DNA of 64,000 bases. Source: Patescibacteria group bacterium. Lineage in GTDB: Bacteria > Patescibacteriota > Patescibacteriia > Patescibacteriales > WJLG01. The stretch is from positions 70,513 through 134,512 of the forward strand of contig JAQTUZ010000002.1 of NCBI GenBank assembly GCA_028707065.1, given 5' to 3'. The notes beneath the pieces are model-generated. The model was not told where the DNA came from, did not search any database, and saw only the letters and a program-made list of their open reading frames with translations. Positions 1-58,553 of this stretch are shown piece after piece (the first letter of the stretch is position 1; the number at the start of each line of letters is the position of its first letter). The position numbers and the translations under genes are program-made.

Positions 1-670
1 CTAATAGACATTTTCTTTTAGTTTGTTCGCACCCGATTAAAAGCGATCCGCTGCCGGCAAACCCATCAAAGACAAAATCGTTTATTTTGGTGCTGTTGAG
101 GATTAAGCGCCTTAATAATCCGACCGGTTTCATGGTACTGTGCAATTTGCTTTTATTTGGTTTAGGATAGAACAAGACGCTCTTATCCTGGGAGTGGCGG
201 AAGTCATGGGCGCCATACCAGCCATAGGCGATTAATTCATGCTGGGGCAGATAATCCAAGCGGCCAATTACCGCTTGTGATTTAACCCAAATGAGCAACT
301 GGGTGAATTTGTATTTGGCCTGAAGCATTGCCTCTCGCAAGGCGAAAATCATCTTGTCGCTGTTAAAAATATAGACGGCATTTTTTCTGGCCAGATACGG
401 TTTTATGTTTTCCAGCCACTGAATCGTGAAGTCGCGATATTCTTCGTCGCTTTGCGCCTGGTCGTTGGCAATGATTTTTTCACAGCCCAATTTTTGCTTG
501 AACCCTGATTTGCTCTCGACGTAGCCAACTCCATAGGGAACATCGGAAATAATCGCGGTAATTTTATCCTCGCCGATAAGGCGTTTTAATAATTCCTTAT
601 CATTAACATCGCCGCAGGCCAATCGATTATTGCCCAAGCGGAAAATTTCTCCCGTTTTAACTTTTTTCAT
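1..670 (-). CDS. DNA methyltransferase (N6-adenine/N4-cytosine type), 3' end cut by window edge
   Basis: Not in the ORF track because no stop lies in the window. Manual minus-strand translation from ATG at 670 stays open to position 2: MKKVKTGEIFRLGNNRLACGD...ISDVPYGVGY (motif IV, DPPY-like)...FDGFAGSGSLLIGCEQ (motif I FxGxG). It overlaps the upstream gene by 14 nt. Confidence 0.8.
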   Translation of the reverse strand, partial: MKKVKTGEIFRLGNNRLACGDVNDKELLKRLIGEDKITAIISDVPYGVGYVESKSGFKQKLGCEKIIANDQAQSDEEYRDFTIQWLENIKPYLARKNAVYIFNSDKMIFALREAMLQAKYKFTQLLIWVKSQAVIGRLDYLPQHELIAYGWYGAHDFRHSQDKSVLFYPKPNKSKLHSTMKPVGLLRRLILNSTKINDFVFDGFAGSGSLLIGCEQTKRKCLL

Positions 671-1952
671 GGTTGTATTTTGCCTTGTTGAGCTTCTTGG
701 CCCTCAGGCCACTAAGCTTTTCAAAGCGATTAATTATTAATTGGCAAAAAATTTGATCCTTTTCGATTAGGTATGCCCGCCGTTTTAATTGCTCGCAAGC
801 GATCAGCGTCGATCCTGATCCGCCGAACAGATCAAGCACGATGTCATTGATCTTGGTGCATCGTCTGAGGGCTTTTTCATGTAGAGTCGGCGGCTTTGAT
901 GTTGGGTGCTCATAATCCTGCCCGGGCAGACGTTTAACCAGCCAGATATCAAGAAGATCGAGAATATCTTCGATTGTTCGGTTGCCGGTGCCGATTTCTT
1001 TGTTTAGGATTTCATTAAGGTTGTTGATCGGCGCTACGTAGGGCTTGTTTTTAATGCCGTAAACTACTGGCTCATAGCATTTGTTGAAAGCGACTTGCGG
1101 GGTTACATTAAATCCATTTTTCATCCAGAGGCAGGTTCGCTGGTATTTTATGCCGAGTTCGGCATACAGCGCTTGGATCATGCCCACATACTTCTGATCG
1201 CAATACCAGAAAAAATGCAGATCCGGCTTGCTGACCGACAAGGCGGTTTGCATTGCCTGTTTGGTAAACTCTCTGAATTCTGCGTCGGTTTTGTTGTCAT
1301 TGACTTGTCCGCCGTAGTTTTGTTTTCCGCCCAAGCCTTTAGCGTAGTCGAGGGAAATATTATAGGGGCTATCGCAGTAGACCATGCTGGCTCGCTCTCC
1401 GGCCAACAGAATTTTTCCGTTATTCTGATCGGTCGAATCGGCGCAGAGGAGGCGATGGCTGCCTAACTGGAAAAGGTCGCCTGTTTTAATGCTGGTCTCC
1501 TTTATTTTTTCTAATTCCTTTTCTTCTTGAAAATCGTCGTCCTCGATTTCTAAAACGTCATTCCAGATTGCGCCGATTTCTTCGGAATCAAAACCCACGT
1601 CCAGCAAGGTTTCGATTTCAAAGTTTTTCAATAGCTCAAGATCCCATTCTCCTTGCGCCTTGTTCATTAATAAATTCAAATCTTTTTCCTTTTTGGGATT
1701 TAAATTTACGAAAATGACCGGCACTTCTTTGTAATTTAATTTTTGGGCGATTTTCCATCTTTGGTGGCCAGAAATTATCACGTTCTCGCGCCCTTTGAAT
1801 CGGTTGGCGACGATTGGATCCAGAAGCTGGTAAGTTTCAATGCTTCTGGTTAATACTTTTTCCTGGCTGGCCGTAAGGCGTCGAGGATTATATTCGGCCG
1901 CCTTGAGCTGTGCCGGAGGCACCATTATGATCTTAGGATTGATTTTCTTCAT
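657..1952 (-). CDS. ParB-like N-terminal domain fused to DNA methyltransferase
   Basis: 431-aa ORF. The N-terminus has ParB/Srx-type ISGHQRW. CDSPYNI is motif IV and LDLFGGSGSTLIACEQ is motif I (beta-class order). This architecture is common in phages and prophages. Confidence 0.85.
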   Translation of the reverse strand: MKKINPKIIMVPPAQLKAAEYNPRRLTASQEKVLTRSIETYQLLDPIVANRFKGRENVIISGHQRWKIAQKLNYKEVPVIFVNLNPKKEKDLNLLMNKAQGEWDLELLKNFEIETLLDVGFDSEEIGAIWNDVLEIEDDDFQEEKELEKIKETSIKTGDLFQLGSHRLLCADSTDQNNGKILLAGERASMVYCDSPYNISLDYAKGLGGKQNYGGQVNDNKTDAEFREFTKQAMQTALSVSKPDLHFFWYCDQKYVGMIQALYAELGIKYQRTCLWMKNGFNVTPQVAFNKCYEPVVYGIKNKPYVAPINNLNEILNKEIGTGNRTIEDILDLLDIWLVKRLPGQDYEHPTSKPPTLHEKALRRCTKINDIVLDLFGGSGSTLIACEQLKRRAYLIEKDQIFCQLIINRFEKLSGLRAKKLNKAKYNHEKS

Positions 1953-2116
1953 ACGGATTTAGTTTTTAGTTTATTAATAAATCGCGCGGAAATAAAAAAA
2001 CCTACTCCGCACGCGAAATAAAAGAAGTCGACGCTTCGCTTATTTCTTGCGCGGAATAGGCATGGCTCTTTGAGCGCTACACTACTCGCTTTTTACTACG
2101 CAGTATTATTTAATTT

Positions 2117-2530
2117 TTAACTTTCATTTTTTGCCAATCTTCTTAAAATCCTTTTTCCTTTGACGCTATTTTTAAATTCAACAGCATCCTTTCCAAGAAG
2201 GATCGGCACATTATTCGGCACGCTTATTAAAACGCGCCTTCCTTGCTTTCGGCATTCGTTTATCGTCTCTTGCAGAACCGGATCATTCAGGCCCATGTCA
2301 ATATTAAAATTAATTATACCTTCTTTATTTTTTTCTTGCGGCGGAAGAGGGGAGTAGAGTCTTGCTGGTTTTTTCCAAAAAATCAACCTTTTAAAAAATT
2401 TGCCAATCTCATTTGTAGTTCGGGTATTTGTGTGAAGCTGAATATCGGTCATTTGTAAAACAATATCCTCTGGTCCGGGAGCAGACTGAGCTGGCTTAAG
2501 TTCTAATTTTTGGATTATTTTTTCTTCCAT
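2117..2530 (-). CDS. hypothetical protein
   Basis: 137-aa ORF upstream of and co-oriented with the methyltransferases. No motif recognised. Confidence 0.45.
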   Translation of the reverse strand: MEEKIIQKLELKPAQSAPGPEDIVLQMTDIQLHTNTRTTNEIGKFFKRLIFWKKPARLYSPLPPQEKNKEGIINFNIDMGLNDPVLQETINECRKQGRRVLISVPNNVPILLGKDAVEFKNSVKGKRILRRLAKNES

Positions 2531-2646
2531 GTCTTAAGTATAGCACGCCGTACAAATTACGCAAGAGGTACAACAAATATTTGACTTGTTTCGAGCTCTA
2601 TGCTAAGCTTGTGATAGCTAATATAAAAGCACGTAAAATTCAACTT

Positions 2647-3288
2647 ATGAAAAAAATGAACGAAAATCAGCAAAAAATTCTCAAACTTGCTTTAAAAGAG
2701 GATATAAGCAAGTTGACCCCAATGGAAATAGCTAGAAAAACGGGCATTGATCACGTCTTCAAAGTTCAATACCATATGGATCAACTTAGAAAAAAGGGCT
2801 TGCTTTATTTCAATAAAAAAGACAAAAAAAGCGAAGTTGCCAAGAGTGGATCGTTTGTTATTGATAAACTTTTACGCATTCCGATTGTTGGCGCGGCTAA
2901 TTGTGGTCCGGCTACCGAACTGGCTCATGAAAACATAGAAGGATATTTGAGTGTATCCAAAGAATTTTTGCCTAAGGCAGACCAGAATAGCTTGATGGCG
3001 GTCCGAGCAGTTGGCGAATCGTTAAATAAAGCCAAAATTGATGGCGAGAGCGTCGAGAGCGGCGATTATGTTATTGTCGACTGCAATAGAACCCCAGAGC
3101 CCGGTGATTACGTCTTGTCGGTTATTGATGATGCCGCCAATTTTAAAAAGTTCTATAAGACCGGAGACGAGGTTAGGCTTGTATCGGAATCGACCCTAGA
3201 CATTCCGCCCATCGTTTTACACAAAAAAGATTTAGACTCTATCGGCTACGCCGTTAACGGCGTAGCGATAAAGGTATTTAAAAAATAA
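2647..3288 (+). CDS. LexA/CI-like repressor (winged-helix N-terminus plus S24 self-cleaving peptidase domain)
   Basis: ATG at 2647 lies in frame within ORF 2581..3288. Ala-Gly-type cleavage region IVGAANCG, Ser motif VGESL (GDSM-like), Lys region ANFKKF. The N-terminus is HTH-like. Confidence 0.75.
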   Translation: MKKMNENQQKILKLALKEDISKLTPMEIARKTGIDHVFKVQYHMDQLRKKGLLYFNKKDKKSEVAKSGSFVIDKLLRIPIVGAANCGPATELAHENIEGYLSVSKEFLPKADQNSLMAVRAVGESLNKAKIDGESVESGDYVIVDCNRTPEPGDYVLSVIDDAANFKKFYKTGDEVRLVSESTLDIPPIVLHKKDLDSIGYAVNGVAIKVFKK

Positions 3289-3300
3289 TATTTTAAATGT

Positions 3301-3510
3301 ATGCCTCCAAAATACATTCGCAATGCCGGCAAGCAATGGACTCCGACAGAAGTGAAACAATTAAAAGTCCTTGCTAAACAGGACACCCCAACTCGTGTAA
3401 TCGGTTTAAAATTAGGCCGTCCGGTTGCCGGTGTTCAGAGTAAAGCCTCGGCTCTTGGCGTGAGCTTGAAACCGACAAATCAAGCGCCGTATAACCGCAG
3501 AGGAAAATAA
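3301..3510 (+). CDS. small Myb/SANT-like HTH protein (hypothetical)
   Basis: 69-aa ORF with WTPTEVKQLKVL, a Myb-like pattern. Its stop lies 1 nt before the next start, so it is probably translationally coupled to the nucleotidyltransferase gene. Confidence 0.5.
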   Translation: MPPKYIRNAGKQWTPTEVKQLKVLAKQDTPTRVIGLKLGRPVAGVQSKASALGVSLKPTNQAPYNRRGK

Positions 3511-3511
3511 T

Positions 3512-4501
3512 ATGATAAACACTTTATTAGAGAATTTTCTTATTAAGAAAATTAATCCGGATCCGGAAATCATTAATCAAGCCTCTGAAAGCCAGGAAAG
3601 ACTTAGAGAAATTTTGGCAAATAAGTTGGAAGAAGACAATAGCTTGCCTTCCGTTCTTGAGGGCGAGGATTTTCTCTACGGATCTGCCATCAGGGGAACA
3701 AAGCCAGCACCGTTTGATGATGTTGATTTAATGCTTGTTTTAGATGGATCAACCTTGGTTGCCAAAGAAGGTGGTCAGGAAATGGGTCCAGCATATGGAA
3801 GCGGGAAAACATTTAATCCGCTGACTTTGCCGCAATATAAAGATGAGTTCGGAAATATATCTTCTCAAAAAATTCTAAACCGCATCCGCGAAGTTTTAAG
3901 TGAAACTTATTCTCGTTCCGAAATCAGAAAAGATGGGCAAGCAATTAATGTTTGGTTGGATGCATATGGTTTTGGAATTGATGTTGTCCCTGCTTTTAAA
4001 ATCGCACATACTAGAGCCGGTACCCATTATTTTATTCCCGAAGGAACAAATTCGAATATGTGGCAATCTACGAATCCGCTTTCTGATATTGAAGCATTTA
4101 AAAAAGAAGATGCAAGATTGGGCGGTGTTTTATCTTCAAGTTGTCGACTTATGAGAAAATGGAATGAGTTGAGTAACGCTGACAGGCTTTCAGGATTCCA
4201 TGTGGATGCGCTTGTTTATCGTTCGCTCTTTGGGAAAAATATTACGACACTTGAAAATGCCTTGCGAGAGTGTTTTAATTTGTTTGATCAGCATCTTGTC
4301 TTAACTTGTCCGCAATTTTCTGGGTTTGCCCCACATATTGATTACAAACTTTCGGCTGAGAATCGAGCACAAAGCATCAAGATGGCACAGGAAGCAAAGA
4401 ATTGTTTTTCGGCGCCTGGGTCTGGTCTACTCTTTTCCCTGCCAGCAAGCACTAATATGCGACTTTGGAATAAAATATTCAACGGGGAATTACTTAAGTA
4501 A
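3512..4501 (+). CDS. SMODS / CD-NTase-like nucleotidyltransferase (CBASS-like cyclase candidate)
   Basis: Pol-beta NTase motifs: YGSAIRGT (GS), DDVDLMLVLD (DxD) and a third acidic residue in GIDVVPAF. The downstream IPEG...W..TNP pattern is typical of SMODS. Confidence 0.7.
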   Translation: MINTLLENFLIKKINPDPEIINQASESQERLREILANKLEEDNSLPSVLEGEDFLYGSAIRGTKPAPFDDVDLMLVLDGSTLVAKEGGQEMGPAYGSGKTFNPLTLPQYKDEFGNISSQKILNRIREVLSETYSRSEIRKDGQAINVWLDAYGFGIDVVPAFKIAHTRAGTHYFIPEGTNSNMWQSTNPLSDIEAFKKEDARLGGVLSSSCRLMRKWNELSNADRLSGFHVDALVYRSLFGKNITTLENALRECFNLFDQHLVLTCPQFSGFAPHIDYKLSAENRAQSIKMAQEAKNCFSAPGSGLLFSLPASTNMRLWNKIFNGELLK

Positions 4502-4505
4502 AAGT

Positions 4506-5390
4506 ATGAATAATATTATTGCCAGACAAAATCAACCCGATCAGATTAATAGATTGGCCGCCCAAAGGTATCTATATTCTAAAGCGAAAAATTTTTTTCT
4601 TGCTCGGCTGTTTTTATCCCTCGTGTTTGCAATCATCGCTCCAATTTTAATGTTAGAATTTAAAAATACCCAATATTATATCGCCATATCCGCAGTTTTT
4701 TATTTGTTTGTTGACTTTTTCTTTTTAAGAAGAGTTGAGAATTCTGATAGAAAAAATGCGGCAAAAATTCAAGAAAGTTTTGATTTGGAATTATTTGAAC
4801 TGCCGTGGAACGATATAGTTGCTGGGAATAAAATTGAAGAAGAGAAAGTACTTTCGTCCTCGAAAAAGTATAAGAAAAAAGTGAAAAATAATTTGGCAAA
4901 TTTGTATGATTGGTATTCTAAAGAAATAGGAGATATTGATCTTCTGCCCGCGGTTGCCATTTGCCAGCGGACAAACGTGTATTGGGACGTGTCTTTGCGA
5001 GAGAAGCTTTTTTGGTCAATTATGGCCATAATTTTATTGTTAAGCTTCGTATTATTTTTTTGGGGCAAAAATTCAATAGTGTTTTTATTTTCAGTTCTTC
5101 CTTTTTACGAAGTTATCATTGATTATGCGGCATCGCAGTATTCTTCGGTAGGCAGAATTAAGGAACTTAAAAATAAAATTGAAGAATTACTGGAAAAGCT
5201 ACCTGAATTTAAAAATATCAACAGTGGCATAAAAGGCAGTCTAAGAGCAATTCAGGATCAGCTTTTTAGACACAGGGAGTCGTGTTCGTTTGTTCCAGAT
5301 TGGTTTTATAAAATTTTTAGAGACAGACAGGAGGAGGAGATGAATTATTGTGCGAAACATTATGTTGATAAATTCCTAAGTAAAGTGTAG
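4506..5390 (+). CDS. four-TM effector, SMODS-associated S-4TM/SLATT-like
   Basis: ATG at 4506 is in frame within ORF 4326..5390, 4 nt after the NTase stop. Two pairs of hydrophobic helices (LFLSLVFAIIAPILML, YYIAISAVFYLFVDFFFL, LFWSIMAIILLLSFVLFFW, IVFLFSVLPFYEVII) precede a charged C-terminal tail. Confidence 0.6.
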   Translation: MNNIIARQNQPDQINRLAAQRYLYSKAKNFFLARLFLSLVFAIIAPILMLEFKNTQYYIAISAVFYLFVDFFFLRRVENSDRKNAAKIQESFDLELFELPWNDIVAGNKIEEEKVLSSSKKYKKKVKNNLANLYDWYSKEIGDIDLLPAVAICQRTNVYWDVSLREKLFWSIMAIILLLSFVLFFWGKNSIVFLFSVLPFYEVIIDYAASQYSSVGRIKELKNKIEELLEKLPEFKNINSGIKGSLRAIQDQLFRHRESCSFVPDWFYKIFRDRQEEEMNYCAKHYVDKFLSKV

Positions 5391-5583
5391 CAGGTAATGA
5401 GTTGTGCTATGTTTTGATATTTTTGTCAAATGGTGCATAAAAGCAATCCCTTTTTATAGTGTCCCATTTGTCCCATTTTGTTTTTAGACCCTTGACCCAA
5501 GTGCCTCATTTTTGCCCCTGGACGATGTCGCATAAAACCCTTATGATGATTGTATAACTGGGGTACTTAACCCAAGTGTCCCG

Positions 5584-5625
5584 CTAACTAAAATAACCTG
5601 ACCTGCGTCAGGTTATTTTAGTTAG
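5584..5625 (+). terminator. perfect 19-bp AT-rich hairpin after the CBASS-like operon
   Basis: ctaactaaaataacctgac / ctgc / gtcaggttattttagttag. Confidence 0.6.
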
Positions 5626-5762
5626 AATGGAAAAGGATAGGATTCGAAAGGCGGAGCGATGTTGGCCGAGCTTTTTGGCGAGGCCAACCGCGAGCCGGGG
5701 TCGCGACCGAACGAGCGGAAGCGAGTGAGAGTTGTGACCGAATCCCATCCTCTCCGCTCAAA
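5598..5762. repeat. 165-nt direct repeat, copy 1 (hairpin half plus GC-rich element with tRNA-3'-like ends)
   Basis: Identical to 5966-6130 except for one mismatch (offset 368 nt). The GC-rich core is bounded by GGATAGGATTCG ... CGAATCCCATCC. Confidence 0.9.
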
Positions 5763-5799
5763 TATAAAATCACGGCTCGTCGCCGTGATTTTATATTTG
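5759..5799. terminator. perfect 17-bp hairpin between GC-rich elements
   Basis: caaatataaaatcacgg / ctcgtcg / ccgtgattttatatttg. Confidence 0.45.
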
Positions 5800-5965
5800 A
5801 GAAGAAAGGGAAGGGGATTCGAACTGGTTGCGAGCGAGCTATGAGTCGCGAGGGAACGAGCGACGAATAAGCGAGCGACGCCAGACGCGACCCGCGGGAG
5901 CGTTTGGCGGCAACCCTGGACAAGAGAGCGAGCCGCTTTCCGGCGGCGAGCGAACGCGTTTCTTT

Positions 5966-6130
5966 CTGACCTGCGTCAGGTTATTTTAGTTAGAATGGAA
6001 AAGGATAGGATTCGAAAGGCGGAGCGATGTTGGCCGAGCTTTTTGGCGAGGCCAACCGCGAGCCGGGGTCGCGACCGAACGAGCGGAAGCGAGTGAGAGT
6101 TGTGACCGAATCCCATCCTCTCCGTTCAAA
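5966..6130. repeat. 165-nt direct repeat, copy 2
   Basis: See copy 1. Only the last 5 bp of the left hairpin arm are kept. Confidence 0.9.
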
Positions 6131-6697: not shown

Positions 6698-7999
6698 TTA
6701 TGCCCGTCCGATGGCTTTGAAGCCGATGTCAGTGCGGTAACGCGCATTTTCCCACCTGATCAGCTTTACTGCCTGGTAGGCCCGAGTTTGAGCGTCGAAT
6801 AACTTGTCTCCCTTTGCCGATACATCGATAACTCGCCCTCCTGCCGTCAAATACACGCCGGATCGGGGGTCGAGTCCGGTGGCCGCGTGTAATATTTGCA
6901 CATCGGCCAGGCAGGCGGCTTCTTCCAGTCCGGAAATCGGAAGTCCGGTTTTGGGTTTTTCCGGATATTCGCCCGACACCATTACCACGCAAAGAGCCGG
7001 CCGCGGATCCCACTGAATCGTCATGCCGGCTAAACTTCCTTTGGCCGTTGCCAAAAGGAAGGGCAGGATATCAGACTTCATCCGCAGGAGGATCGGCTGG
7101 ATTTCCGGGTCGCCGAAACGGATGTTGAATTCCAGCACCCGCACGTCTTCGCCGTCGATCATCAGTCCGGCGTAAAGGAGGCCGCGGAAAGGCATGCCTT
7201 CGTTCTTCATCGCTTCAACCGTCGGCTTCATGATCGTCTCCATGATTTTTTCACTTAAAGCGGGGGTAACGACTGGCGCCGGAGAATAGGCTCCCATGCC
7301 GCCGGTATTGGGGCCTTGGTCGTTGTCGCGGGCTCGCTTATGGTCTTGGGCGGTGGCTAAAGGTAAAACGCGCTTGCCGTCCACGAAGGCCATAAAGGAG
7401 GCTTCTTCGCCCGAAAGGAAATCTTCGATGACGATCTGATTGCCGGCATCGCCGAATTTCTTGTCCACCATCATGGCGCGGATCGTATTTTCAGCCTCGG
7501 CAAGCGTTGGGCAATCAATCGCCCCTTTGCCTGAAGCCAGGCCCGAGGTTTTGATGAACACGTGCGGGTCTGTTTTGCGACGCATATATTCCAGCGCGGA
7601 ATCGGGATTGGAAAAGGTATCGAAGGCCGCCGTAGGAATTTCGTATCTTCTCAGCAGCTGCTTCATGGCCGCCTTGGAGCCTTCCAAAATCGATGCTTTT
7701 TTGGACGGACCGAAAACCGGGATGCCCGCTCTCCGCAAACGGTCAGACAAACCGGCCACCAGGGGCGCTTCCGGCCCGATCACCGCCAAGCCGATCTTCT
7801 TGACTTTGGCAAATGACACTATGGATGACGGATACTTAGCATCAATAGGTACGCACTGGGCTGTCCGGCTGATTCCGCCGTTGCCCGGCAGGCAGTAAAT
7901 TTTTCCTGCCAGCGGGGATTGGCTGATTTTTTCCACGAGCGCGGCTTCACGGCCGCCGCTGCCGATCACCATGACATTGAGTTTAGCTTTTTTGGCCAT
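6698..7999 (-). CDS. purD: phosphoribosylamine--glycine ligase
   Basis: 433 aa. The N-terminus VMVIGSGGREAALV and the ATP-grasp body are typical of PurD. Confidence 0.95.
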   Translation of the reverse strand: MAKKAKLNVMVIGSGGREAALVEKISQSPLAGKIYCLPGNGGISRTAQCVPIDAKYPSSIVSFAKVKKIGLAVIGPEAPLVAGLSDRLRRAGIPVFGPSKKASILEGSKAAMKQLLRRYEIPTAAFDTFSNPDSALEYMRRKTDPHVFIKTSGLASGKGAIDCPTLAEAENTIRAMMVDKKFGDAGNQIVIEDFLSGEEASFMAFVDGKRVLPLATAQDHKRARDNDQGPNTGGMGAYSPAPVVTPALSEKIMETIMKPTVEAMKNEGMPFRGLLYAGLMIDGEDVRVLEFNIRFGDPEIQPILLRMKSDILPFLLATAKGSLAGMTIQWDPRPALCVVMVSGEYPEKPKTGLPISGLEEAACLADVQILHAATGLDPRSGVYLTAGGRVIDVSAKGDKLFDAQTRAYQAVKLIRWENARYRTDIGFKAIGRA

Positions 8000-15960: not shown

Positions 15961-17664
15961 ATGTCAGAAGAAAAAAACGAGACCTTGAGTTTCAATGGCC
16001 TTGGCATTGCCGAGAAGCTTTTGGAAACTATCAACAAGCTGGGTTTGTCGGAACCGACGCCCATCCAATTTAAGTCTATTCCTGTCGCTGTCGAAGGAAA
16101 GGATATTATCGGTGTGGCTCAGACCGGAACTGGCAAAACTTTAGCTTTCGCTATCCCCATGATTCAGCGTTTGGCTTTGTATAAAGGTAAGGGATTAGTG
16201 CTTTTGCCGACCCGCGAGCTCGCTTTGCAGGTGGATGAAAGTATGCGCGCTTTTGGCGCTTCGATCGGATTGCGTACCGCAGTTATAATTGGCGGCGAAT
16301 CGATTAATCGACAGCGCGAAATGGTGCGCCGCAATCCTCATGTCTTGATTGCGACTCCGGGCCGGATGAATGATTTTATCCAGCGCGGTTGGATTAATTT
16401 AAGCGATGTCAAAGTATTAGTCTTGGATGAAGCTGATATGATGTTGGATATGGGATTTGCTCCCCAGATCGAAACCATCATCAAGAAAATCCCCAAGGCA
16501 AGGCAGACCATGCTTTTTTCCGCGACCATGCCTAAGGAGATCATCAAATTAGCTGCCAACCACATGGCCGAACCGATTAGCGTGGAGGTGGCGCCGTCCG
16601 GACAAACCGCCGCCGGCATCAATCAGGAGATTTATATCATCCATAAAGACGCCCGCTTGAGTCAATTGGAAAAACTTCTGCAAGAATCGGCCGGTTCGGT
16701 TTTGATTTTCTGCCGCACCAAGCGGGGAGTGAAAAAATTGACCGAGCAAGTGGAAATGATGGGCCATCGCGCCGCGGAAATCCATTCGAATCGTTCGCTG
16801 GAACAGCGCCGCAAGGCCTTAGCCGGCTTCAAGTCCCGCAAATACCGGGTATTAGTTGCAACTGACATTGCCGCACGCGGCATTGATGTGAAAGACATCG
16901 AGTTGGTTGTCAATTTCGATCTGCCGGAAGATCCGGGCGATTATGTGCACCGCATCGGCCGCACCGGACGCGCCGGCAAAACCGGCAAAGCGATTTCTTT
17001 CGCCATGCCGGATCAGATCCGCGACGTGCGCGCGATCGAACGCCTGATCAAAAAAACCATCCCCTTAACCAAATTAGCTGAGTATAACGAATCAAGTTCG
17101 TATGCTTCGGCTCCGGCTCGCCATTTTGGCAGAAAATTTTCCCGGCCATTCAATCGAGTCCAGGCTGGATTTGCCAAAAGGGGCCAGGAAAGATTCGGTT
17201 ATAAAAAATTTAATCACACTGATCAACCTAGCGAACGCGGCTTTAGTAAATACAAGTCTAAACCGGCTGATAACCGCTCTGATTTCGGTAATGATAAATT
17301 CAAACCCAAACGGGAAGGCTTCCGCTCTGATTTCGGCCATGATAAATTCAAGGCTAAAAAAGAGGGATACCGTTCTGATTTTGGTCGCGACAAATTCAAA
17401 CATAATAAACCAGGTCTCCATTCTGATTCCGGCTACAATAAATTTGCGCCGCATTTGCGTCGCAGTCCCGCGGCGGAGACTGCGGCGGGGCAGAAACGCG
17501 GTTTTGATCCGTTAGAATATTTTTCCAATCGTCCGGAAACCCGAGTTATGACTGATAAAGAAAGATTCCGCGCCAGCTTAAGAGAAGGCGATGATCGCCC
17601 CTCGTTCGGCCGCAAGAAGAATTTTTCCGGCAAAGGCCGCCGCGATAATCGATTTCATCGATAA
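15961..17664 (+). CDS. DEAD-box ATP-dependent RNA helicase with repetitive basic C-terminal tail
   Basis: AQTGTGKT, VLDEADMMLD, SAT and HRIGRTGRAG motifs. The C-terminus carries RSDFGxDKFK repeats. Confidence 0.9.
   Translation: MSEEKNETLSFNGLGIAEKLLETINKLGLSEPTPIQFKSIPVAVEGKDIIGVAQTGTGKTLAFAIPMIQRLALYKGKGLVLLPTRELALQVDESMRAFGASIGLRTAVIIGGESINRQREMVRRNPHVLIATPGRMNDFIQRGWINLSDVKVLVLDEADMMLDMGFAPQIETIIKKIPKARQTMLFSATMPKEIIKLAANHMAEPISVEVAPSGQTAAGINQEIYIIHKDARLSQLEKLLQESAGSVLIFCRTKRGVKKLTEQVEMMGHRAAEIHSNRSLEQRRKALAGFKSRKYRVLVATDIAARGIDVKDIELVVNFDLPEDPGDYVHRIGRTGRAGKTGKAISFAMPDQIRDVRAIERLIKKTIPLTKLAEYNESSSYASAPARHFGRKFSRPFNRVQAGFAKRGQERFGYKKFNHTDQPSERGFSKYKSKPADNRSDFGNDKFKPKREGFRSDFGHDKFKAKKEGYRSDFGRDKFKHNKPGLHSDSGYNKFAPHLRRSPAAETAAGQKRGFDPLEYFSNRPETRVMTDKERFRASLREGDDRPSFGRKKNFSGKGRRDNRFHR
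17275..17448 (+). repeat. about 48-nt in-frame tandem repeat (about 3.5 copies) inside the helicase gene
   Basis: cgctctgatttcggtaatgataaattcaaa..., cgctctgatttcggccatgataaattcaag..., cgttctgattttggtcgcgacaaattcaaa..., cattctgattccggctacaataaattt. Confidence 0.7.
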
Positions 17665-26393: not shown

Positions 26394-26464
26394 GCGGGGT
26401 TCGTATAGTGGTAGTACAGGGGTCTCCAAAACCTCTAGCGTGGGTCCGATTCCTACACCCCGTG
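26394..26464 (+). tRNA. tRNA-Trp (anticodon CCA), canonical type I
   Basis: Hand fold: acceptor GCGGGGT/ACCCCGT (G1-U72 wobble), anticodon arm GGGGT-CTCCAAA-ACCTC, short variable loop, T arm GTGGG-TCCGATT-CCTAC, discriminator G73. Confidence 0.85.
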
Positions 26465-26578
26465 CGTATATAAAATCATGTAAAGCGACCCGAAGGCCGA
26501 TTATTTTCGGGTTCCAGACCCAGACAGGTAAAAGTTTTTTGGATAGAAAATTTTAATTTTAAGATTAGATTTTTTTAT

Positions 26579-27808
26579 ATGGCCTATAAGGACGTGTCTG
26601 ACGACGCAATAAATTCAATAGCAAAATTTATTAATCAAAAGAGTAACAAGAATTACTCTATTCCTGTCGTTGGAGACGAGAACAATCCAGAGGTTCCACA
26701 TATTTTTGAAATAATTCCGTTTAATGAAATCGATAAAACTTCAAGTAAATTTTATGCAATAGACGGAAGTTATAATTCTCAAGAATTCTATAACGGTATG
26801 TGTATTGCGGTGTACGCCGCTGGGTATGTTTGCTATAAAGATGGAAAGCAGGTTTGTTTGAATGGGTTAGACGATCCAGTGATATTGGGAAAATCCTACT
26901 TTCCTGAAAGAGTTTTGGTTATAAATGATGAGGATAAGGAACTGATATATGATGAGTTGTTTTCTCTGGATCCGGTCAAGAAGTTAATTGCTTTTTTTGG
27001 GGATCCTGTTAGGGATATTTTTGCGTATGACAAAAAGGCTGTTTGTACCACAACATCAGCATTACTATCTTTTTGCCAGAGCGTTCTTGAATTGGCACTC
27101 ATATATGAAATTGCAAATCTTAAAACCACAGAAGTTGGCGACTTTATTTTACGAGATGGCACTTTAAGACCGATAGATGTTAAGCAAAAGTATTCTGTCA
27201 TGTTGGGAGAATATTTAAAGAAAAAAGGAATTATTATTGTTGCCATAACAAAAAATTCTGGAATTAAGATGGAGCTCTCATATACTTTCAAACAAATTGA
27301 TACATATCTTCAAGATAAATTAAAGCCGACATACTCATTTAAAAACCAAGATTCTAAATGTCAAAAACTTTGTTGTTGGTTTGAAGTTCCCACGACAGTT
27401 CTTTCCAGCGCATATGGTCAAATGTATATAAAAAAGGAGCTTACGGGCGGAAGAGGTTTTGGTTTGTTTTTTGTAGCTAGACTGGATTACGTTGAAAAAT
27501 TACAGAATTACGATTGGCTCGTTGTCGACGTTAATATCTTTGATGCAATTCCTGGAATCAAAACATTTGATATTAAACGAGACATTTTATTTTTAGAGAG
27601 TCTTTTTAAAGAGCTTACTCGTCTTACCCAAGAACATTATATTCTTGGGTATCCTTATCCTTTAGTAGAGGTGCACAATTTTATCACTCTTAAAAAGACA
27701 TTTAAAGATGAAATAATAAAGAGGGTAAAGTTTGCGTTATACGGCAATCAGCAAATGGATAATGTTGATATTGAAAATATATTTTTAGATATACACGATC
27801 GTTTTTAA
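26579..27808 (+). CDS. NurA-like nuclease
   Basis: FYAIDGSYN, ILRDGTLRP and VAITKNSGIK match the conserved DGS / DG(T/S)L / K.S strands of NurA. It sits immediately upstream of a HerA-like ATPase. Confidence 0.65.
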   Translation: MAYKDVSDDAINSIAKFINQKSNKNYSIPVVGDENNPEVPHIFEIIPFNEIDKTSSKFYAIDGSYNSQEFYNGMCIAVYAAGYVCYKDGKQVCLNGLDDPVILGKSYFPERVLVINDEDKELIYDELFSLDPVKKLIAFFGDPVRDIFAYDKKAVCTTTSALLSFCQSVLELALIYEIANLKTTEVGDFILRDGTLRPIDVKQKYSVMLGEYLKKKGIIIVAITKNSGIKMELSYTFKQIDTYLQDKLKPTYSFKNQDSKCQKLCCWFEVPTTVLSSAYGQMYIKKELTGGRGFGLFFVARLDYVEKLQNYDWLVVDVNIFDAIPGIKTFDIKRDILFLESLFKELTRLTQEHYILGYPYPLVEVHNFITLKKTFKDEIIKRVKFALYGNQQMDNVDIENIFLDIHDRF

Positions 27809-27825
27809 TAATTTAATATAAAAAT

Positions 27826-29487
27826 ATGATAAGTAAGGAAAATTTCGGAGTTTTGTATGGGCAAAAAACCACAGAAGATGCTCTGCTTATTTACTCATCT
27901 TATGCTGATTCTAAAGCAAGTCCTCAAACTGGTGATTTTATTGTTTTGGCGCCGAAGGATGAGAGCGGGATAAAGTTTCTCTCAAGAGTTGATGCAGAAA
28001 TTTACGACGAGGATCCGATTTTTAAATCTCAGGATAAGACGCTTATCGCGGTTCACTATGCCCGAATTGCAGAGCGTGAGCTTTCCGAAAGAGATAAGCA
28101 AAAAATTTTTAGCTATACGTATAAAGTTAAAATTTTGGGTACGTTCACTAACAATGGAGGCGGTATAGATTTTACAACCGCCGTAAGAAAGCTCCCCACG
28201 GTTTCGTATCATGCCCGACATCTTTTACCGGAAGAAATTAAATATATTTTAAATAAGGATAATCAACAGGAAGGTAGCCAACCATCAGCTTTAGGATATC
28301 TTTGTATCGGTGATTCCGAACAAAAGGAAAAGGGTGAAATATTTTTCGATATCAATAAACTTTGTAAAAAAAGAACAATGGTCTTTGCTCAATCTGGTTT
28401 CGGTAAGACAAACTTGGTTAAAACCTTGATTTATCATGCTATAGGTGATACTGGCTACGGGAAGCTTGTCTTCGATTTAAACGGAGAATATGCTTTAAAA
28501 AGTCAAAAGACAAATGGTCTCGGCGATATTAATGAGCAGAAAATAAAAGACAATCTAGTTGTGTATACTGATAAGTCAATTCCAGTAGAGTACAATGGTC
28601 GTTTTATTGCTGGTGGAAAAGTCGCCTTAAACATGTATAAGAATTTATCCGTAGGTGATGTGCTAAATTTTACTACTGGTTTTTCTGATGTAATGAAATC
28701 TTTTCTTATTTATTTGAACGATGGTGCTGGAAATTTTATGGAAAAGATTGAAGATTATGCCAGTACTCCACAAAATTTATATAAAGATTTCCCTGATTTT
28801 TGGGGTCAAGAGAAGTCGGATAAAAAAACAGGAGAATTTAAAGATGATGCTAAAGCACGTCCTACAATAATGGGCATTAGAAAAAGAATTGGTTTTCTTT
28901 TGGATGAGAAGGGTGGCTTGCATTCTAATTCGTCAACTTTAGTGGAGGATGTTTGTAAATATTTACGAGAAGGAAAAACTGTTGTATTGGATCTTTCAAT
29001 GAAAGATGACACCGAATCAAGTATTATTTCTACAATTATTGTGCGTAAAATATTCGAGATTAATAAAGCTAGTTTTACAACGGAAGAGGATATCGGCGAG
29101 CCAATTCCTTGCGTTATATTTGTTGAAGAGGCGCAAAATGTTTTATCGGAAGAATTCGTGAAATCAAATGCTAATCCTTTTGTGCGTATTGCAAAAGAAG
29201 GAAGAAAATTTGGAATCGGATTAGTCGGCATTACTCAGAGGCCATCGGCAATTTCTGAAGAAATAAGAACTCAGGCTGATAATTTTTTTGCATTTCACAT
29301 GGGGAATAGTGATGATATACGTGCGCTAGTCAAATCTAATTCTAATTATGATGGTGTCATTGCTAAATTTATTCAAAGCGAAACAATCCCCGGTAATTTG
29401 TACATGGTTTCTTCTACACAGGCGTTTGTTCTGCCCATCCGAGTATATGAATTTGAGAAAATGATAAAAACAAAACTATACAAATAG
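27826..29487 (+). CDS. HerA/DUF87-type (FtsK-HerA superfamily) ATPase
   Basis: Walker A AQSGFGKTN, Walker B CVIFVEEAQN, EGRKFGIGLVGITQRPSAIS. Confidence 0.8.
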   Translation: MISKENFGVLYGQKTTEDALLIYSSYADSKASPQTGDFIVLAPKDESGIKFLSRVDAEIYDEDPIFKSQDKTLIAVHYARIAERELSERDKQKIFSYTYKVKILGTFTNNGGGIDFTTAVRKLPTVSYHARHLLPEEIKYILNKDNQQEGSQPSALGYLCIGDSEQKEKGEIFFDINKLCKKRTMVFAQSGFGKTNLVKTLIYHAIGDTGYGKLVFDLNGEYALKSQKTNGLGDINEQKIKDNLVVYTDKSIPVEYNGRFIAGGKVALNMYKNLSVGDVLNFTTGFSDVMKSFLIYLNDGAGNFMEKIEDYASTPQNLYKDFPDFWGQEKSDKKTGEFKDDAKARPTIMGIRKRIGFLLDEKGGLHSNSSTLVEDVCKYLREGKTVVLDLSMKDDTESSIISTIIVRKIFEINKASFTTEEDIGEPIPCVIFVEEAQNVLSEEFVKSNANPFVRIAKEGRKFGIGLVGITQRPSAISEEIRTQADNFFAFHMGNSDDIRALVKSNSNYDGVIAKFIQSETIPGNLYMVSSTQAFVLPIRVYEFEKMIKTKLYK

Positions 29488-29492
29488 ATAAA

Positions 29493-30704
29493 ATGTTACA
29501 ACTTGATGTAAAAAAGAAAATAAATTTAGATACTCTTTTTGAAGACTTAGCCCAAAAAGACAATCTTGTTCTTGAGGAAAAAGTTAAACTCTTGATTTTG
29601 AGGGATCTTTTACGTTTAAATTGGAAAATAGATTTTGATAAAAACAAGATTGTTATTGCCCCTCCTGAGAATTATGATAAGGAGACTGTTCGTCTTGCCA
29701 TGTCTCACAAACGTAAAGAGTCAATTGGTGATAATGCCGAATGGATAAGAAACAATATTGAATTTGCTAGAAATAATCTTGCGGATGGGAAAGATGTTTT
29801 AAGGTCAAAGATAAAACCAATAATTGAGGTATGTGAATCTCCTAGACAACACGATTTATTTAGACTGTATCGGTATTATTGGTCATCTGCTCATAGTGAA
29901 TATGTTGGCAGAAGGATAAAATTAATTATAAGAGACGGTGGTTTGCCCAATAAGCCAGTTATAGGAATAGCTGCTTTAGGTAGTCCAATTATTCATATTC
30001 CTGATCGTGATAATTGGATAGGTTGGGATAAAAATTTAAGAACAAAAAATCTTATTTATGCAATGGATGCATATGTTATAGGTGCGCTGCCTCCTTATAA
30101 TTATTTATTAGGCGGCAAACTCGTTTCTTATGTTTTAGCGTCCAACGAGGTTAGAAAGATATATAAAGATAAGTATAAAAATAAAATTACTTTAATTGAC
30201 AAAAAGAAAGCGAGTGATTTGGTATGTATTTTTACTACCAGCTTGTATGGTAAGAGTGCTCAGTATAATCGGGTAAAATATAAAAGTAAATTACTCTATA
30301 TGCCGATAGGGGAGACGAGGGGTTTTGGAACTCTACATTTATCTAGCGAAACTTTAGATGCAATGTTGGAATTATTGTTTTCAAAAGGAATTTTTGTAAC
30401 AAATAAATTTGGTGATGGTCCAAGTTGGAGCATGAGAGTTATTAGGACGGTGGGGGACATGCTTAATTTCGATTCTGATTTTCTTCTTAGGCATTCTTTT
30501 AAGAGAGGAATTTATGTTGTTCGGCTCGCGAGTAATTTTCGTAATTTTTTAAATGGTAAAGACAAAAAACCAAAATATTATAACTATTCGCTTAAAAATT
30601 TAGTTTCTTTTTGGAAAAAACGTTGGTTTAAAAATAGAAAGCAGAATATTGATGTTATTCAAAAGGTTGAAGCTTTTAATAAATCCGATTTTAATATTCT
30701 TTAA
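29493..30704 (+). CDS. DUF4338 (Druantia DruA)-like protein
   Basis: LYRYYWSSAHSEYVGRRIKLIIR...IGIAALGSPIIHIPDRDNWIGW...NLIYAMDAYVIGALPPYN..LGGKLVSYVLA matches, from memory, the YHYLG...RD.WIGW...N..R.L.LP core. It needs HMM confirmation. Confidence 0.55.
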   Translation: MLQLDVKKKINLDTLFEDLAQKDNLVLEEKVKLLILRDLLRLNWKIDFDKNKIVIAPPENYDKETVRLAMSHKRKESIGDNAEWIRNNIEFARNNLADGKDVLRSKIKPIIEVCESPRQHDLFRLYRYYWSSAHSEYVGRRIKLIIRDGGLPNKPVIGIAALGSPIIHIPDRDNWIGWDKNLRTKNLIYAMDAYVIGALPPYNYLLGGKLVSYVLASNEVRKIYKDKYKNKITLIDKKKASDLVCIFTTSLYGKSAQYNRVKYKSKLLYMPIGETRGFGTLHLSSETLDAMLELLFSKGIFVTNKFGDGPSWSMRVIRTVGDMLNFDSDFLLRHSFKRGIYVVRLASNFRNFLNGKDKKPKYYNYSLKNLVSFWKKRWFKNRKQNIDVIQKVEAFNKSDFNIL

Positions 30705-30748
30705 AACTGTAGGTTAAATGACAAGATAATCAAGGACAAGCTAAATAT

Positions 30749-31657
30749 ATGGATATATCACAGGCAAAGGGTTATCTCTTTGAGTATGTAGTCCAAAATT
30801 TATTAAAAAAATCTGGTTACGTGAAAGTGAGGATGGCAAATATAAGAGGCAGGGGTGGCGATCATCAAATAGACGCCTATGGCTTATTATCAATTCCAAC
30901 GCCTTTTATTTATCCAATAAGATTGATATGTGAAGCTAAAAATTACGGAGATAAAATTGGATTAGGAAAAATCAGGGATTTTGTTGGAGTAATGAAGGAT
31001 ATTTCGGAAAAATATACTACTCGAAAAAATGGCAAATATGAAAGATTTTCTGACTCCGGTTGCTATTTTTCAACAAAGGGTTTCACGATGGACGCTCAAA
31101 AATATGCATGGGCTCAAAATATTTTTTTGGTCTCTCATAATGGTATTGATAGATCTAATGAGATAGTAAAAGTTATTGATGAATTTTTATCTAGCAATCA
31201 GTTTGATGGTTTGAACAAGGGAGGGTTGATAGAAAGGTTTAAAGTATTTTTTGAAAGAAGATTTGACGATTTAGCAATTTCTTTCACGGTCGGTATTGTA
31301 AATGGTAAATATCCAACAGTAATTGTTGGCAATAAGGGGTTGGTCGATAAAATAAAGCAATTTTTGCCGTCTGATTCCGATTCTTTTGGGGCGACAAAAA
31401 CATCGCGAGAGTGGAATGAAACTGATACATATTTTAATGTTTTTATAAATGAATTAGGGGAGGAAATAAAGGTTTCAGTCCCTAATTTCATAGCTAAACA
31501 TATTGTAAATAAGATAGATAGGTCAAGGCCTGGTAATAAGATATTTTATATAGACGTGCCAGTGCTATCTAAAATAAGGCGTTTTGTTACTATTGATGTT
31601 TCATTGGGTGAATTTGAAACTGCGGATTATTTGGATAAATTGAGAAGGGATTCATAG
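30749..31657 (+). CDS. Mrr-like PD-(D/E)xK restriction endonuclease domain protein with unknown C-terminal half
   Basis: GYLFEYVVQNLLKKSGY, GGDHQIDAYG, LICEAKNYGDKIGLGKIRDFVG, GCYFSTKGFTMDAQKYA. Confidence 0.7.
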   Translation: MDISQAKGYLFEYVVQNLLKKSGYVKVRMANIRGRGGDHQIDAYGLLSIPTPFIYPIRLICEAKNYGDKIGLGKIRDFVGVMKDISEKYTTRKNGKYERFSDSGCYFSTKGFTMDAQKYAWAQNIFLVSHNGIDRSNEIVKVIDEFLSSNQFDGLNKGGLIERFKVFFERRFDDLAISFTVGIVNGKYPTVIVGNKGLVDKIKQFLPSDSDSFGATKTSREWNETDTYFNVFINELGEEIKVSVPNFIAKHIVNKIDRSRPGNKIFYIDVPVLSKIRRFVTIDVSLGEFETADYLDKLRRDS

Positions 31658-31776
31658 TGGCCCAGGGCCATATAGTGTCCCATTTGTCCCATTTAGTCTG
31701 CCCCATATGCCGTATAAAATATCATTGAATAATGCCGAAACTACTTGTATAATGTAATATAGACCCGTACGTGGTG

Positions 31777-31820
31777 CTGAAAATAAAAATGCTGGCTTGC
31801 GCCAGTATTTTTATTTTCAG
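31777..31820 (+). terminator. 20-bp AT-rich hairpin after the four-gene cassette
   Basis: ctgaaaataaaaatgctggc / ttgc / gccagtatttttattttcag (one mismatch). Confidence 0.65.
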
Positions 31821-31887
31821 TATCGAGGAGAATGGAATCGGACTGGCCGTGAGCGAACGCGGAATTCCCTCTATCCCCGTGAATTAG
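31821..31887. other. short GC-rich element with a tRNA-Trp-3'-end-like terminus
   Basis: gaggagaatggaatcgg...cggaattccctctatccccgtg. The end resembles tRNA-Trp ccgattcctacaccccgtg. Confidence 0.4.
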
Positions 31888-31890
31888 ATA

Positions 31891-31916
31891 ATATCGCCTC
31901 ATTAGCGATATTTTTT
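31891..31916 (+). terminator. hairpin plus T-run
   Basis: atatcgc / ctcatta / gcgatat followed by tttttt. Confidence 0.5.
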
Positions 31917-31958
31917 GATAGAAAAATTAAGCCTTTGTTATCAATAGCCGGCTTTATA

Positions 31959-31995
31959 TAAAAAAACCGCCCGAATGGTTTTGGCCATTGGGCGG
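31959..31995 (-). terminator. rho-independent terminator of the RT gene
   Basis: The minus strand reads ccgcccaatggcc aaaa ccattcgggcgg ttttttt. Confidence 0.65.
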
Positions 31996-32035
31996 AGTAA
32001 AATTGCGTTTACTTTCGATTTGTACATTCCAAATT

Positions 32036-52887: not shown

Positions 52888-52972
52888 GGAGGGTTGACTG
52901 AGTGGTCTAAGGTGACCATCTCCAAAATGGTTATGCTGGGAGGCATCGAGGGTTCGAATCCCTCACTCTCCG
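52888..52972 (+). tRNA. type II (serine-like) tRNA with anticodon CCA
   Basis: Hand fold: acceptor GGAGGGT/ACTCTCC (G1-C72, G2-C71, A3-U70), D arm ACT-GAGTGGTCTAA-GGT, anticodon arm ACCAT-CTCCAAA-ATGGT, 16-nt variable arm TATGCTGGGAGGCATC, T arm GAGGG-TTCGAAT-CCCTC, discriminator G73. Confidence 0.75.
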
Positions 52973-53027
52973 CAAGAAAATTTTTATGCCCAACTCATGG
53001 TCGGATTTTTTATTTTGAAATAACTCG

Positions 53028-58325: not shown

Positions 58326-58435
58326 ACAAAAGTCAATTTCATTGACGATCCGTGGGGATTTTTTTCTCGCGGATTTTTTATTAACGCAGCCCTTGACGGG
58401 TTTTTTATATGTGTTATTATGAAATCAATCAAATA

Positions 58436-58548
58436 AAGCCATAGACAGCAGGCGGGGGAATCACCCCATTAAGACCTGCCGAGGCGAATTATAGATTCTC
58501 TATTTTTTGTTTTAATGTCTGTGGCTAAAACCACAGTTTTATTTTTTT
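58436..58548 (+). promoter_or_regulatory. candidate ribosomal protein L10 (rplJ) leader with attenuator hairpin
   Basis: Promoter TTGACG...TATTAT at about 58394-58420. Structured segment GCAGG-cGGGGaatcaCCCC-attaaga-CCTGC, then CTGTGG-ctaaaa-CCACAG followed by a T-run (58519-58548). Confidence 0.4.
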
Positions 58549-58553
58549 AAAAA

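Follow-up and report, generated by a model that had tools for sequence, protein, structure and literature searches.

A 64,000-nucleotide stretch of DNA from a Patescibacteria group bacterium (GenBank assembly GCA_028707065.1, contig JAQTUZ010000002.1, forward-strand positions 70,513 to 134,512; hereafter the window) contains near its left end a putative cyclic oligonucleotide-based antiphage signaling system (CBASS), which lies behind a gene for a LexA-like repressor with an S24 peptidase domain (S24). Four co-directional open reading frames (ORFs), at 2647-5390, encode the repressor, a 69-aa protein (p69), a CD-NTase cyclase and a membrane protein with four transmembrane (4TM) segments, and the gaps between them are 12, 1 and 4 nt, as a first-pass annotation made from the sequence alone had described (Table 1). 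The ORF lister began the repressor at TTG 2581, that is, in the proposed -35 box, while homologs start at 2647 or 2656; the start used here is ATG 2647 (MKKMNENQ...), and most homologs use the Met at 2656 (MNENQ). In this paper we compare the locus with fetched relatives, labelled L001 upward.

Table 1. Coordinates of features in the window, with the basis of each assignment or a remark
Feature	Position	Strand	Basis or remark
Second N6/N4 DNA methyltransferase of the island's leftward arm	2-670, cut by window start	-	tblastn, clustering
ParB_N-fused N6/N4 DNA methyltransferase, island backbone gene	657-1952	-	Pfam
p137, first leftward-arm gene, divergent from repressor	2117-2530	-	ORF
Divergent control region, 116 bp, p137 to repressor	2531-2646		sequence reading
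Candidate operator, three RYRCAA units, 9-nt spacing	2550-2573	+	shuffles, ortholog comparison
Rightward promoter candidate, TTGACT-N17-(TGc)TAAGCT	2581-2609	+	conservation in orthologous regions
S24 repressor, LexA-family winged helix-turn-helix (wHTH)-S24, predicted self-cleaving	2647-3288	+	Peptidase_S24 match
p69, 69-aa three-helix helix-turn-helix (HTH) protein	3301-3510	+	PHROG_323, AlphaFold2 (AF2) model
Putative CD-NTase/SMODS cyclase of type I CBASS	3512-4501	+	SMODS, PADLOC Cyclase, active-site motif
Putative S_4TM membrane effector of CBASS	4506-5390	+	Pfam S_4TM, PADLOC 4TM effector
Right-end unit of cargo slot, conserved, non-coding	5456-5625	+	motif and nhmmer profile
Two 165-nt direct repeats flanking a long inverted repeat	5598-6130		repeat search
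purD, host gene	6698-7999	-	beyond island edge
tRNA-Trp	26394-26465		start of second defence cluster
NurA	26579-27808		second defence cluster
HerA/DUF87	27826-29487		second defence cluster
DruA	29493-30704		second defence cluster
Mrr_cat restriction endonuclease	30749-31657		second defence cluster
Second right-end unit copy	31672-31860		closes second defence cluster
RVT_1 reverse transcriptase	32036-33085	-	convergent, faces second unit copy

The last two genes of the operon form, as judged from their families, a minimal type I CBASS of one cyclase and one effector, because no Cap2/Cap3 (E1/E2/JAB) or HORMA/TRIP13 families were found between 2117 and 6557 (Pfam, PADLOC, NCBIfam); the only other members of the operon are S24 and p69. 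The cyclase matches Pfam SMODS (1.8e-15), PADLOC Cyclase (4.5e-39, residues 2-300) and NCBIfam CBASS_cyclase_b (1.7e-29, under the equivalog cut-off), and it carries the catalytic motif GS-x12-DVD at residues 57-72 and GID near residue 156, which confirms the SMODS/CD-NTase enzyme with GS...DVD...D that had been read from the sequence. The membrane protein (294 aa) has four hydrophobic segments and matches S_4TM over its full length (Pfam, 4.9e-71, residues 2-284; PADLOC 4TM effector, 1.5e-70), so that the proposed S-4TM effector and, with it, the type I-like pairing of a cyclase with a transmembrane effector also stood. Its gene has a GC content of 33% versus 43% for the window, a foreign composition. 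Profile searches for SMODS, S_4TM and Peptidase_S24 gave none of the three results that the first-pass annotation had named as contradicting it, namely a nucleotidyltransferase of a non-signalling family, a membrane protein without S_4TM similarity or a repressor lacking its Ser-Lys dyad. The association of SMODS with S_4TM, and type I CBASS with a 4TM effector, are said to have been described by Burroughs in 2015 and Millman in 2020. This locus resembles such systems in its intact GS...DxD...D CD-NTase, in its full-length S_4TM 4 nt downstream and in the absence of the Cap2/Cap3 and HORMA/TRIP13 genes; it differs in that no match is above NCBIfam equivalog cut-offs, in that the nearest solved CD-NTase structure is reached at only E = 0.0019, and in its host, a bacterium of the candidate phyla radiation (CPR). 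A single-protein query of species-representative genomes confirmed no relatives of the cyclase.

The repressor matches Peptidase_S24 (2.8e-15) and, weakly, LexA_DNA_bind (16.4 bits), a domain recorded in many of its homologs, and a profile built from 30 homologs can be aligned over its full length with residues 7-198 of E. coli LexA (E = 1.2e-10). In this alignment Cys86-Gly87 of the predicted cleavage site, VGAANC/G, falls on LexA Ala84-Gly85, Ser125 of GESL on Ser119 and Lys167 of FKKF on Lys156, and all three are invariant in the 30 homologs. A Cys-Gly scissile bond is the variant found in UmuD. We regard the protein as a LexA-family autoprotease, predicted to cleave itself, whose Ser-Lys dyad is intact and whose Cys-Gly site is UmuD-like, in agreement with the wHTH-S24 repressor that had been proposed from the motifs VGAANCG, GESL and KKF. 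It had also been proposed that a single LexA/CI-like protein occupies the place of the CapH/CapP pair, and indeed no IrrE/ImmA-type metallopeptidase was found in or beside the operon (Pfam, PADLOC), which leaves the locus without such a pair. Fold and dyad are common to the repressor and LexA; SetR of the SXT-family integrative and conjugative elements is likewise an S24 repressor for which RecA-stimulated cleavage ties mobilisation of the element to the SOS response. The repressor differs from both in its Cys-Gly cleavage site, as in UmuD, and in a candidate operator that is a triple direct repeat.

Comparison with related loci indicates that the CBASS is swappable cargo of a slot behind the repressor, because a near-identical cassette precedes differing defence genes elsewhere. 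DNA homology to the closest relatives spans the promoter-S24(-p69) cassette and ends exactly at the cargo boundary: window 2552-3514 has 82% DNA identity to L097, in which PDC-M50A and PDC-M50B (ThsB-like TIR) follow; window 1972-3298 has 78% identity to L092, in which a TIR-like gene comes directly after S24 and p69 is absent; and window 2427-3510 has 78% identity to L093, in which p69 is followed by genes without a recognised family. In islands less closely related, S24 is followed first by genes for Avs4 (1809 bits; L010, L029 and L101, and also L020, with too little upstream sequence for typing), a SAVED effector with a cyclase and E2 (L011), a phospholipase with a cyclase (L023), HNH-SAVED with a cyclase (L026, L032, L042), a cyclase (L103), Cap2 (E1-E2, 580 bits; L028), a type IIG restriction-modification (R-M) system with an OLD/GajA-like protein (L066), a QatA/PDC-S20-like protein (L044), SIR2 (L019), PDC-S54 (L031), MBL with E2 (L003, L099) and ThsB-TIR proteins (L116). 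The cargo starts -4 to +15 nt from S24 in most loci, and the slot is 2.2 kb long in the window and 1.5-7.2 kb elsewhere. As a control, ten chromosomal-type loci were taken with one large gene downstream of S24 each, and these gave one cyclase, one R-M methylase and otherwise nothing or generic ATPase-type genes. Slots without a PADLOC match were seen in L033/L108, L034, L013, L069, L030, L067, L090, L094 and L016, with proteins that include some of 639 and 1261 aa; their position makes these unmatched proteins candidates for undescribed defence systems.

On the other side of the repressor lies the backbone of the island. L009 is identical to window 1-3998 (100%) and reaches 1290 nt further upstream; it carries the second methyltransferase complete (249 aa; PHROG DNA methyltransferase, 4.6e-59) and, beyond the methylases, genes for the small and large terminase subunits, TerS (phrog_309, 2.5e-7) and TerL (phrog_38, 1.7e-44). 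The ParB-methylase (Pfam N6_N4_Mtase, 2.1e-31; ParB_N, 1.9e-9) is represented, in more than 20 loci, by orthologs that occupy this place upstream of S24. Of the fetched loci, about 30 show S24 divergent from an arm that consists of a small protein, the ParB-methylase, an optional second methylase, TerS and usually TerL, and at whose far end there is a large serine recombinase with Resolvase, Recombinase and Zn_ribbon_recom domains. From this integrase to the conserved unit at the right end of the slot the relatives measure 8.8-12.9 kb, a span in which only TerL, TerS, methylases, small ORFs, occasional SNase/Zn-ribbon genes, S24 and cargo were found and no capsid, portal, tail or lysis genes were recognised. 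The contiguous structural and lysis genes of a complete temperate prophage were thus not recognised in the relatives, and the sequence of this copy ends on the left at TerL. What is present resembles a satellite of the phage-inducible chromosomal island (PICI) type: an integrase (in relatives only), a divergent master repressor, TerS, small size and no structural genes. By its architecture the island is compact, apparently integrative and widespread in Patescibacteria, and the prophage-derived or island context first suggested by the neighbouring methylases has become, with TerS/TerL in L009 and the arm conserved in about 30 loci, that of a putative mobile island.

A second variable position, on the opposite strand, is located between the integrase and TerS/TerL, and its genes sometimes replace TerL. 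It holds a secreted or membrane SNase-domain protein in L010, L019, L026, L029, L031, L042 and L103 and a Zn-ribbon/DUF4352-like protein in L003, L016, L023, L028, L030, L069 and L101; in L119 a group of CD-NTase, 153-aa gene and p69 stands between the integrase and the SNase gene. Among deposited phages there was no close relative of the island's TerL or of a second queried protein, and TerL is only about 25% identical to the terminases of Mu-like phages. This distance, the relatives that are without TerL or have SNase/Zn-ribbon genes in its place, and the fact that no replication module was found would all suit a decayed prophage remnant, an immobile element in which repressor and CBASS are adjacent and functionally uncoupled. 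We consider this improbable, however, as the compact architecture recurs with intact ORFs in more than 20 species that span several CPR classes, the catalytic residues of S24 are invariant, the spacing of the genes is operon-like, and turnover of cargo at fixed borders implies ongoing exchange.

The repressor family itself is broad. A protein with 100% identity to the repressor comes from a Patescibacteria-group metagenome-assembled genome (MAG), the 526 homologs in the protein database are nearly all from Patescibacteria, and the 279 hits in species-representative genomes are almost all from CPR bacteria. Many members stand in lineage-conserved chromosomal synteny, such as S24-MgsA-cation ATPase, and these copies are probably housekeeping LexA. 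It could be argued from this breadth, from the annotation of S24 as LexA by the sources and from the tree described below that S24 is simply the SOS repressor of the host and that mobile DNA came to be inserted on both sides of it by coincidence. This we hold to be very improbable. Against TIGR00498 lexA the repressor scores 74.5 bits, below the cut-off of 110.95, and so falls outside the housekeeping LexA equivalog; the recognition helix of the window clade, DHVFKVQYH, differs from the NPQTVIYH of the family majority; and one MAG has both kinds of copy, one linked to an island (L033) and one in conserved chromosomal synteny (L037). Moreover, the promoter-S24(-p69) cassette travels as one piece: its flanks are unrelated from locus to locus, and homology stops sharply. 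S24 is also found between integrase and right-end unit in loci whose outer flanks differ. In a neighbour-joining tree the island-linked copies were enriched in one large clade, yet were interleaved with chromosomal copies without a clean split, and monophyly of the island-linked copies was rejected.

The slot is closed on the right by a conserved unit which carries GTCCCATTTGTCCCATTT at 5461-5478, continues in conserved blocks to about 5584 and ends in a hairpin terminator at 5584-5625. In order, the roughly 130-nt unit comprises two 9-nt direct repeats, GTCNCATTT, then the ACCCCGACC and GGTaCTaGACC blocks, and is followed by the terminator. The motif GTCNCATTTGTCNCATTT occurs as one plus-strand copy in the window and in each of 18 island loci, just behind the final gene of the cargo. 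An nhmmer profile of the unit detected 23 copies in 22 sequences, each of them downstream of S24, and none lay upstream of it or in inverted orientation. Besides the window, the unit was located in L003, L010, L013, L016, L019, L020, L023, L026, L030-L032, L034, L042, L044, L069, L078, L094, L099, L102 and L103. A structured RNA, an att site, a pac site, a cargo-exchange site or a shared 3' untranslated region are the candidates for its nature; RNAalifold predicted no consensus pairs in the unit, and for the unit and the 165-nt repeats next to it Rfam gave only spurious miRNA-type hits below gathering scores and ARAGORN found no tRNA. In L044 a distantly related NTase gene (15984-16625; 25% identity to the window cyclase) lies just past the unit, and defence genes may accumulate outside the slot too.

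In the control region, the two GTACAA direct repeats and the TTGACT-N17-TAAGCT promoter that had been pointed out earlier are present, the repeats at 2550-2555 and 2568-2573; GTACAA-N12-GTACAA is expected 0.09 times per window. Both boxes belong to a series of three RYRCAA units with 9-nt spacing, GTACAA att ACGCAA gag GTACAA. The triple pattern is unique in the window and appeared in 0/100 shuffles, a statistic that is generous because the pattern was derived from this very sequence; the meaningful test is that by orthologs, and among the 121 fetched loci scanned the pattern recurs only at the orthologous promoters of L097, L092 and L093, where it is maintained despite base changes. Conservation extends over the whole control region in L092 and L093 and begins at 2552 in L097, and the -35 TTGAC and a TGn-extended -10 (TAAGCT, TAAGAT or GAGAAT) are conserved in four orthologous regions; a generic promoter scanner did not list the rightward promoter, the -10 of which is too weak and below its threshold. 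The search of 2531-2646 for a palindromic LexA-type box yielded no more than a weak, imperfect palindrome of 13 nt over the -10, and this was rejected as the operator, not being conserved in orthologs. A gap of 7 nt separates the candidate operator from the rightward -35 downstream of it, and its distance from the start codon of p137 is 20-43 nt; it appears better placed to block a leftward than a rightward promoter. Because it is upstream of the rightward -35 and overlies the region where the leftward promoter probably is, the leftward arm may be what it chiefly represses. No convincing terminator was found in the operon before 5584-5625.

In bacteriophage lambda the immunity operon cI-rexA-rexB carries abortive-infection genes behind the prophage repressor. 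The explanation that we lean towards, with modest confidence, is that the same logic holds on this satellite-like element, that is, S24 would be the master repressor of the island and the CBASS a cargo co-transcribed behind it; co-transcription with the island repressor is the most likely arrangement. The repressor would bind the 116-bp divergent region and silence the leftward arm (methylases, terminase, integrase), and the rightward promoter would give rise to one transcript, S24-p69-cyclase-4TM, ending at the terminator near 5584-5625. The CBASS would then be expressed during quiescence of the island, at a level set by autoregulation of the repressor, and would protect both cell and island from phages as rexAB does behind lambda cI. 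Upon infection, the cyclase would make a cyclic nucleotide and the 4TM effector would be activated, resulting in membrane disruption, a form of abortive infection. DNA damage, through activated RecA (RecA*), would lead to self-cleavage of the repressor at Cys86-Gly87, to derepression of the leftward arm and to mobilisation of the island. At the same moment transcription of the CBASS would rise if the repressor is negatively autoregulated, as is LexA, or would fall if it activates itself, as does lambda CI at PRM. In this arrangement the CBASS may be expressed together with the repressor, not silenced by it.

The first-pass annotation had, conversely, called the repressor the CBASS's own, and this was not borne out: in about 30 loci S24 travels with the methylase-TerS-TerL-integrase arm and with no particular defence system, the cargo varies, and the same promoter-S24(-p69) cassette precedes PDC-M50/ThsB-TIR genes in L097, a TIR-like gene in L092 and unrecognised genes in L093. 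A dedicated damage-sensing immune regulator would keep a toxic operon near-silent until, in response to DNA damage or attack by a phage, RecA-stimulated self-cleavage derepresses the CBASS, as a one-protein analogue of CapH/CapP, CapW and CapK/CapS, and LexA-family proteins are well established as normally repressing their own promoters. S24 directly precedes CBASS-type genes, of several CBASS types, in at least 12 loci, and S24-CBASS loci lacking the terminase arm are among them. It is followed directly by a CD-NTase without the leftward arm in L061 (415 bits) and L106, by a CD-NTase also in L078 and L113, where the arm cannot be assessed, and again in a 56-kb viral contig, L091. These arm-less loci would fit a general regulator of immune operons equally well, and they weigh against co-transcription with an island repressor, as do several further points. 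A defence gene is not recognisable in 9 of about 28 distinct island-linked slots; the integrase is known from relatives only, the window and L009 reaching left no further than TerL; and replication or excision-directionality genes were not recognised among the backbone genes; the island could be an immobile remnant. The candidate operator, moreover, consists of direct repeats and not of the palindrome typical of LexA boxes, and from what was observed, gene content and comparative architecture, we infer every regulatory step, including transcription, DNA binding, cleavage and mobility. Nevertheless, a dedicated regulator seems to us rather unlikely. S24 is the first gene of the operon to be silenced, which makes complete silencing impossible; the candidate operator lies upstream of the -35 and not over the core of the promoter; and the slot also holds non-abortive systems, such as R-M, that have no need of tight shut-off. 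Dedicated regulation may also hold alongside co-transcription behind an island repressor, if the repressor autoregulates negatively.

The island can be compared with known elements. Like lambda cI-rexAB, it has a repressor with an S24 domain, predicted here to be RecA-sensitive, that is divergent from the induced arm, and on the repressor strand, with operon spacing, an abortive-infection module of the kind that protects a lysogen. It differs from lambda in the LexA-type winged HTH of the repressor in place of a CI-type HTH, in the lack of recognisable structural genes, in the high turnover of a slot that accepts many systems and not one fixed pair, and in that co-transcription is here a proposal. 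BstA is another prophage-encoded abortive-infection system (PMC8585504). Defence hotspots on P2-like phages and P4-like satellites (PMC9122126) and phage satellites such as PICIs and Staphylococcus aureus pathogenicity islands (PMC10085698) are similar to this island in that a small integrative element (about 9-13 kb here) with an integrase has a master repressor divergent from a TerS-containing operon, no capsid, tail or lysis genes, and a bounded hotspot of diverse anti-phage systems. Unlike these, the island has a large serine integrase, both TerS and TerL, and ParB-fused methylases; no primase or replication module is recognisable in it; its repressor is LexA-like and predicted to be SOS-cleavable; and its hosts are CPR bacteria.

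DNA-damage-responsive regulators upstream of diverse immune operons have been described in the form of CapH/CapP (10.1101/2022.04.27.489752), the WYL protein CapW (PMC9122588, PMC11662680) and CapK/CapS (PMC13373217); a term search of the last paper found no mention of LexA or S24. As in these, a transcription factor predicted to respond to damage lies directly upstream of CBASS and of unrelated immune operons. The difference is that a single wHTH-S24 autoprotease takes the place of an HTH protein and metallopeptidase (CapH/CapP), a WYL sensor (CapW) or a kinase and its substrate (CapK/CapS), and that the island repressor is co-directional with the operon, apparently its first gene, and tied to a mobile-element backbone.

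Defence hotspots on mobile elements and damage-sensing regulators of immune operons are already known, and the defensomes of CPR bacteria have been catalogued (PMC12259885). Limited literature searches, of incomplete coverage, brought up no account of the island itself or of CBASS regulation by a LexA/S24 protein. New here are the type of regulator, a LexA-family wHTH-S24 protein as the first gene of an immune operon; the carrier, a serine integrase-TerL/TerS-ParB-methylase island without structural genes; and the host group, CPR bacteria. We tentatively suggest, as a possibility somewhat short of probable, that these islands make up an undescribed family of satellite-like elements of Patescibacteria, characterised by a serine integrase, TerL/TerS, a ParB-methylase and an SOS-cleavable master repressor derived from LexA, in which the operon downstream of the repressor forms a bounded defence hotspot with high turnover, the roughly 130-nt unit closing it. 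In such a family the repressor would be a fourth class of damage-responsive regulator, made up of a single protein, the unannotated cargos of about nine islands would be new defence systems, and the unit, which also closes a cluster at 26.5-31.7 kb, would be the site of cargo exchange.

CPR bacteria represent a large share of bacterial diversity and combine heavy phage pressure with tiny genomes, and how they acquire and regulate immunity is barely known. The locus offers a concrete vehicle, a 9-13 kb island in which CBASS, Avs4, TIR, SIR2, R-M/OLD and unknown systems are swapped between fixed borders, all under a LexA-type and presumably SOS-sensitive repressor. The borders, S24 or p69 on the left and the conserved unit on the right, are a computational handle for mining defence systems in uncultured bacteria, the repressor is a candidate fourth class beside CapW, CapH/CapP and CapK/CapS, and the island is a testable example of a mobile element with a LexA homolog as its switch.

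Two small proteins flank the repressor. The 69-aa product had been described as Myb-like, and it is indeed a small Myb/HTH-like protein in its AF2 model (a three-helix bundle, pLDDT 80); a PDB profile search and Foldseek place it nearest to HTH domains, those of Myb/SANT type among them, with no significant match, and membership of the Myb family was therefore not adopted in favour of the plain term three-helix HTH. It matches PHROG_323, 'transcriptional regulator' (6.4e-9), has no match in Pfam, PADLOC or NCBIfam, and belongs to a family of 3825 homologs with 70-85% identity across CPR bacteria. In the cassette p69 is an optional gene between repressor and cargo, absent in L092, and it occurs beside defence cargo in L097, L093, L116 and L119. 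Both further contexts examined are islands of the same kind with defence cargo, the order being S24, a 92-aa gene, p69 and TIR genes in L116 and CD-NTase, the 153-aa gene and p69 in L119. The protein is plausibly a small DNA-binding co-regulator. On the other side, p137 has no match in Pfam, PADLOC, PHROG or NCBIfam and 63 homologs in the representative library; its AF2 model is confident (pLDDT 86), and no similar solved fold was found.

Between the island edge and purD, the two 165-nt direct repeats (5598-5762 and 5966-6130) are 99% identical and have a GC content of 56% versus 43% for the window. They flank an inverted repeat with 28-nt arms at 5749-5809. The minus strand of this stretch has a fold much more stable than those of shuffled sequences (z = -9.4), and a homologous stretch follows the unit in L034. 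A second defence-type cluster occupies window 26394-33085, with no S24 or p69 there (Table 1). ARAGORN predicted a second tRNA with the anticodon CCA (Trp) at 52888-52973, of 86 nt; its variable arm is long, and a UGG-reading tRNA of type II is unusual, in contrast to the ordinary 72-nt tRNA-Trp at 26394. A ribosomal protein L10 leader (RF00557, 54.4 bits) is present at 58421-58552, where the window is ordinary chromosome.

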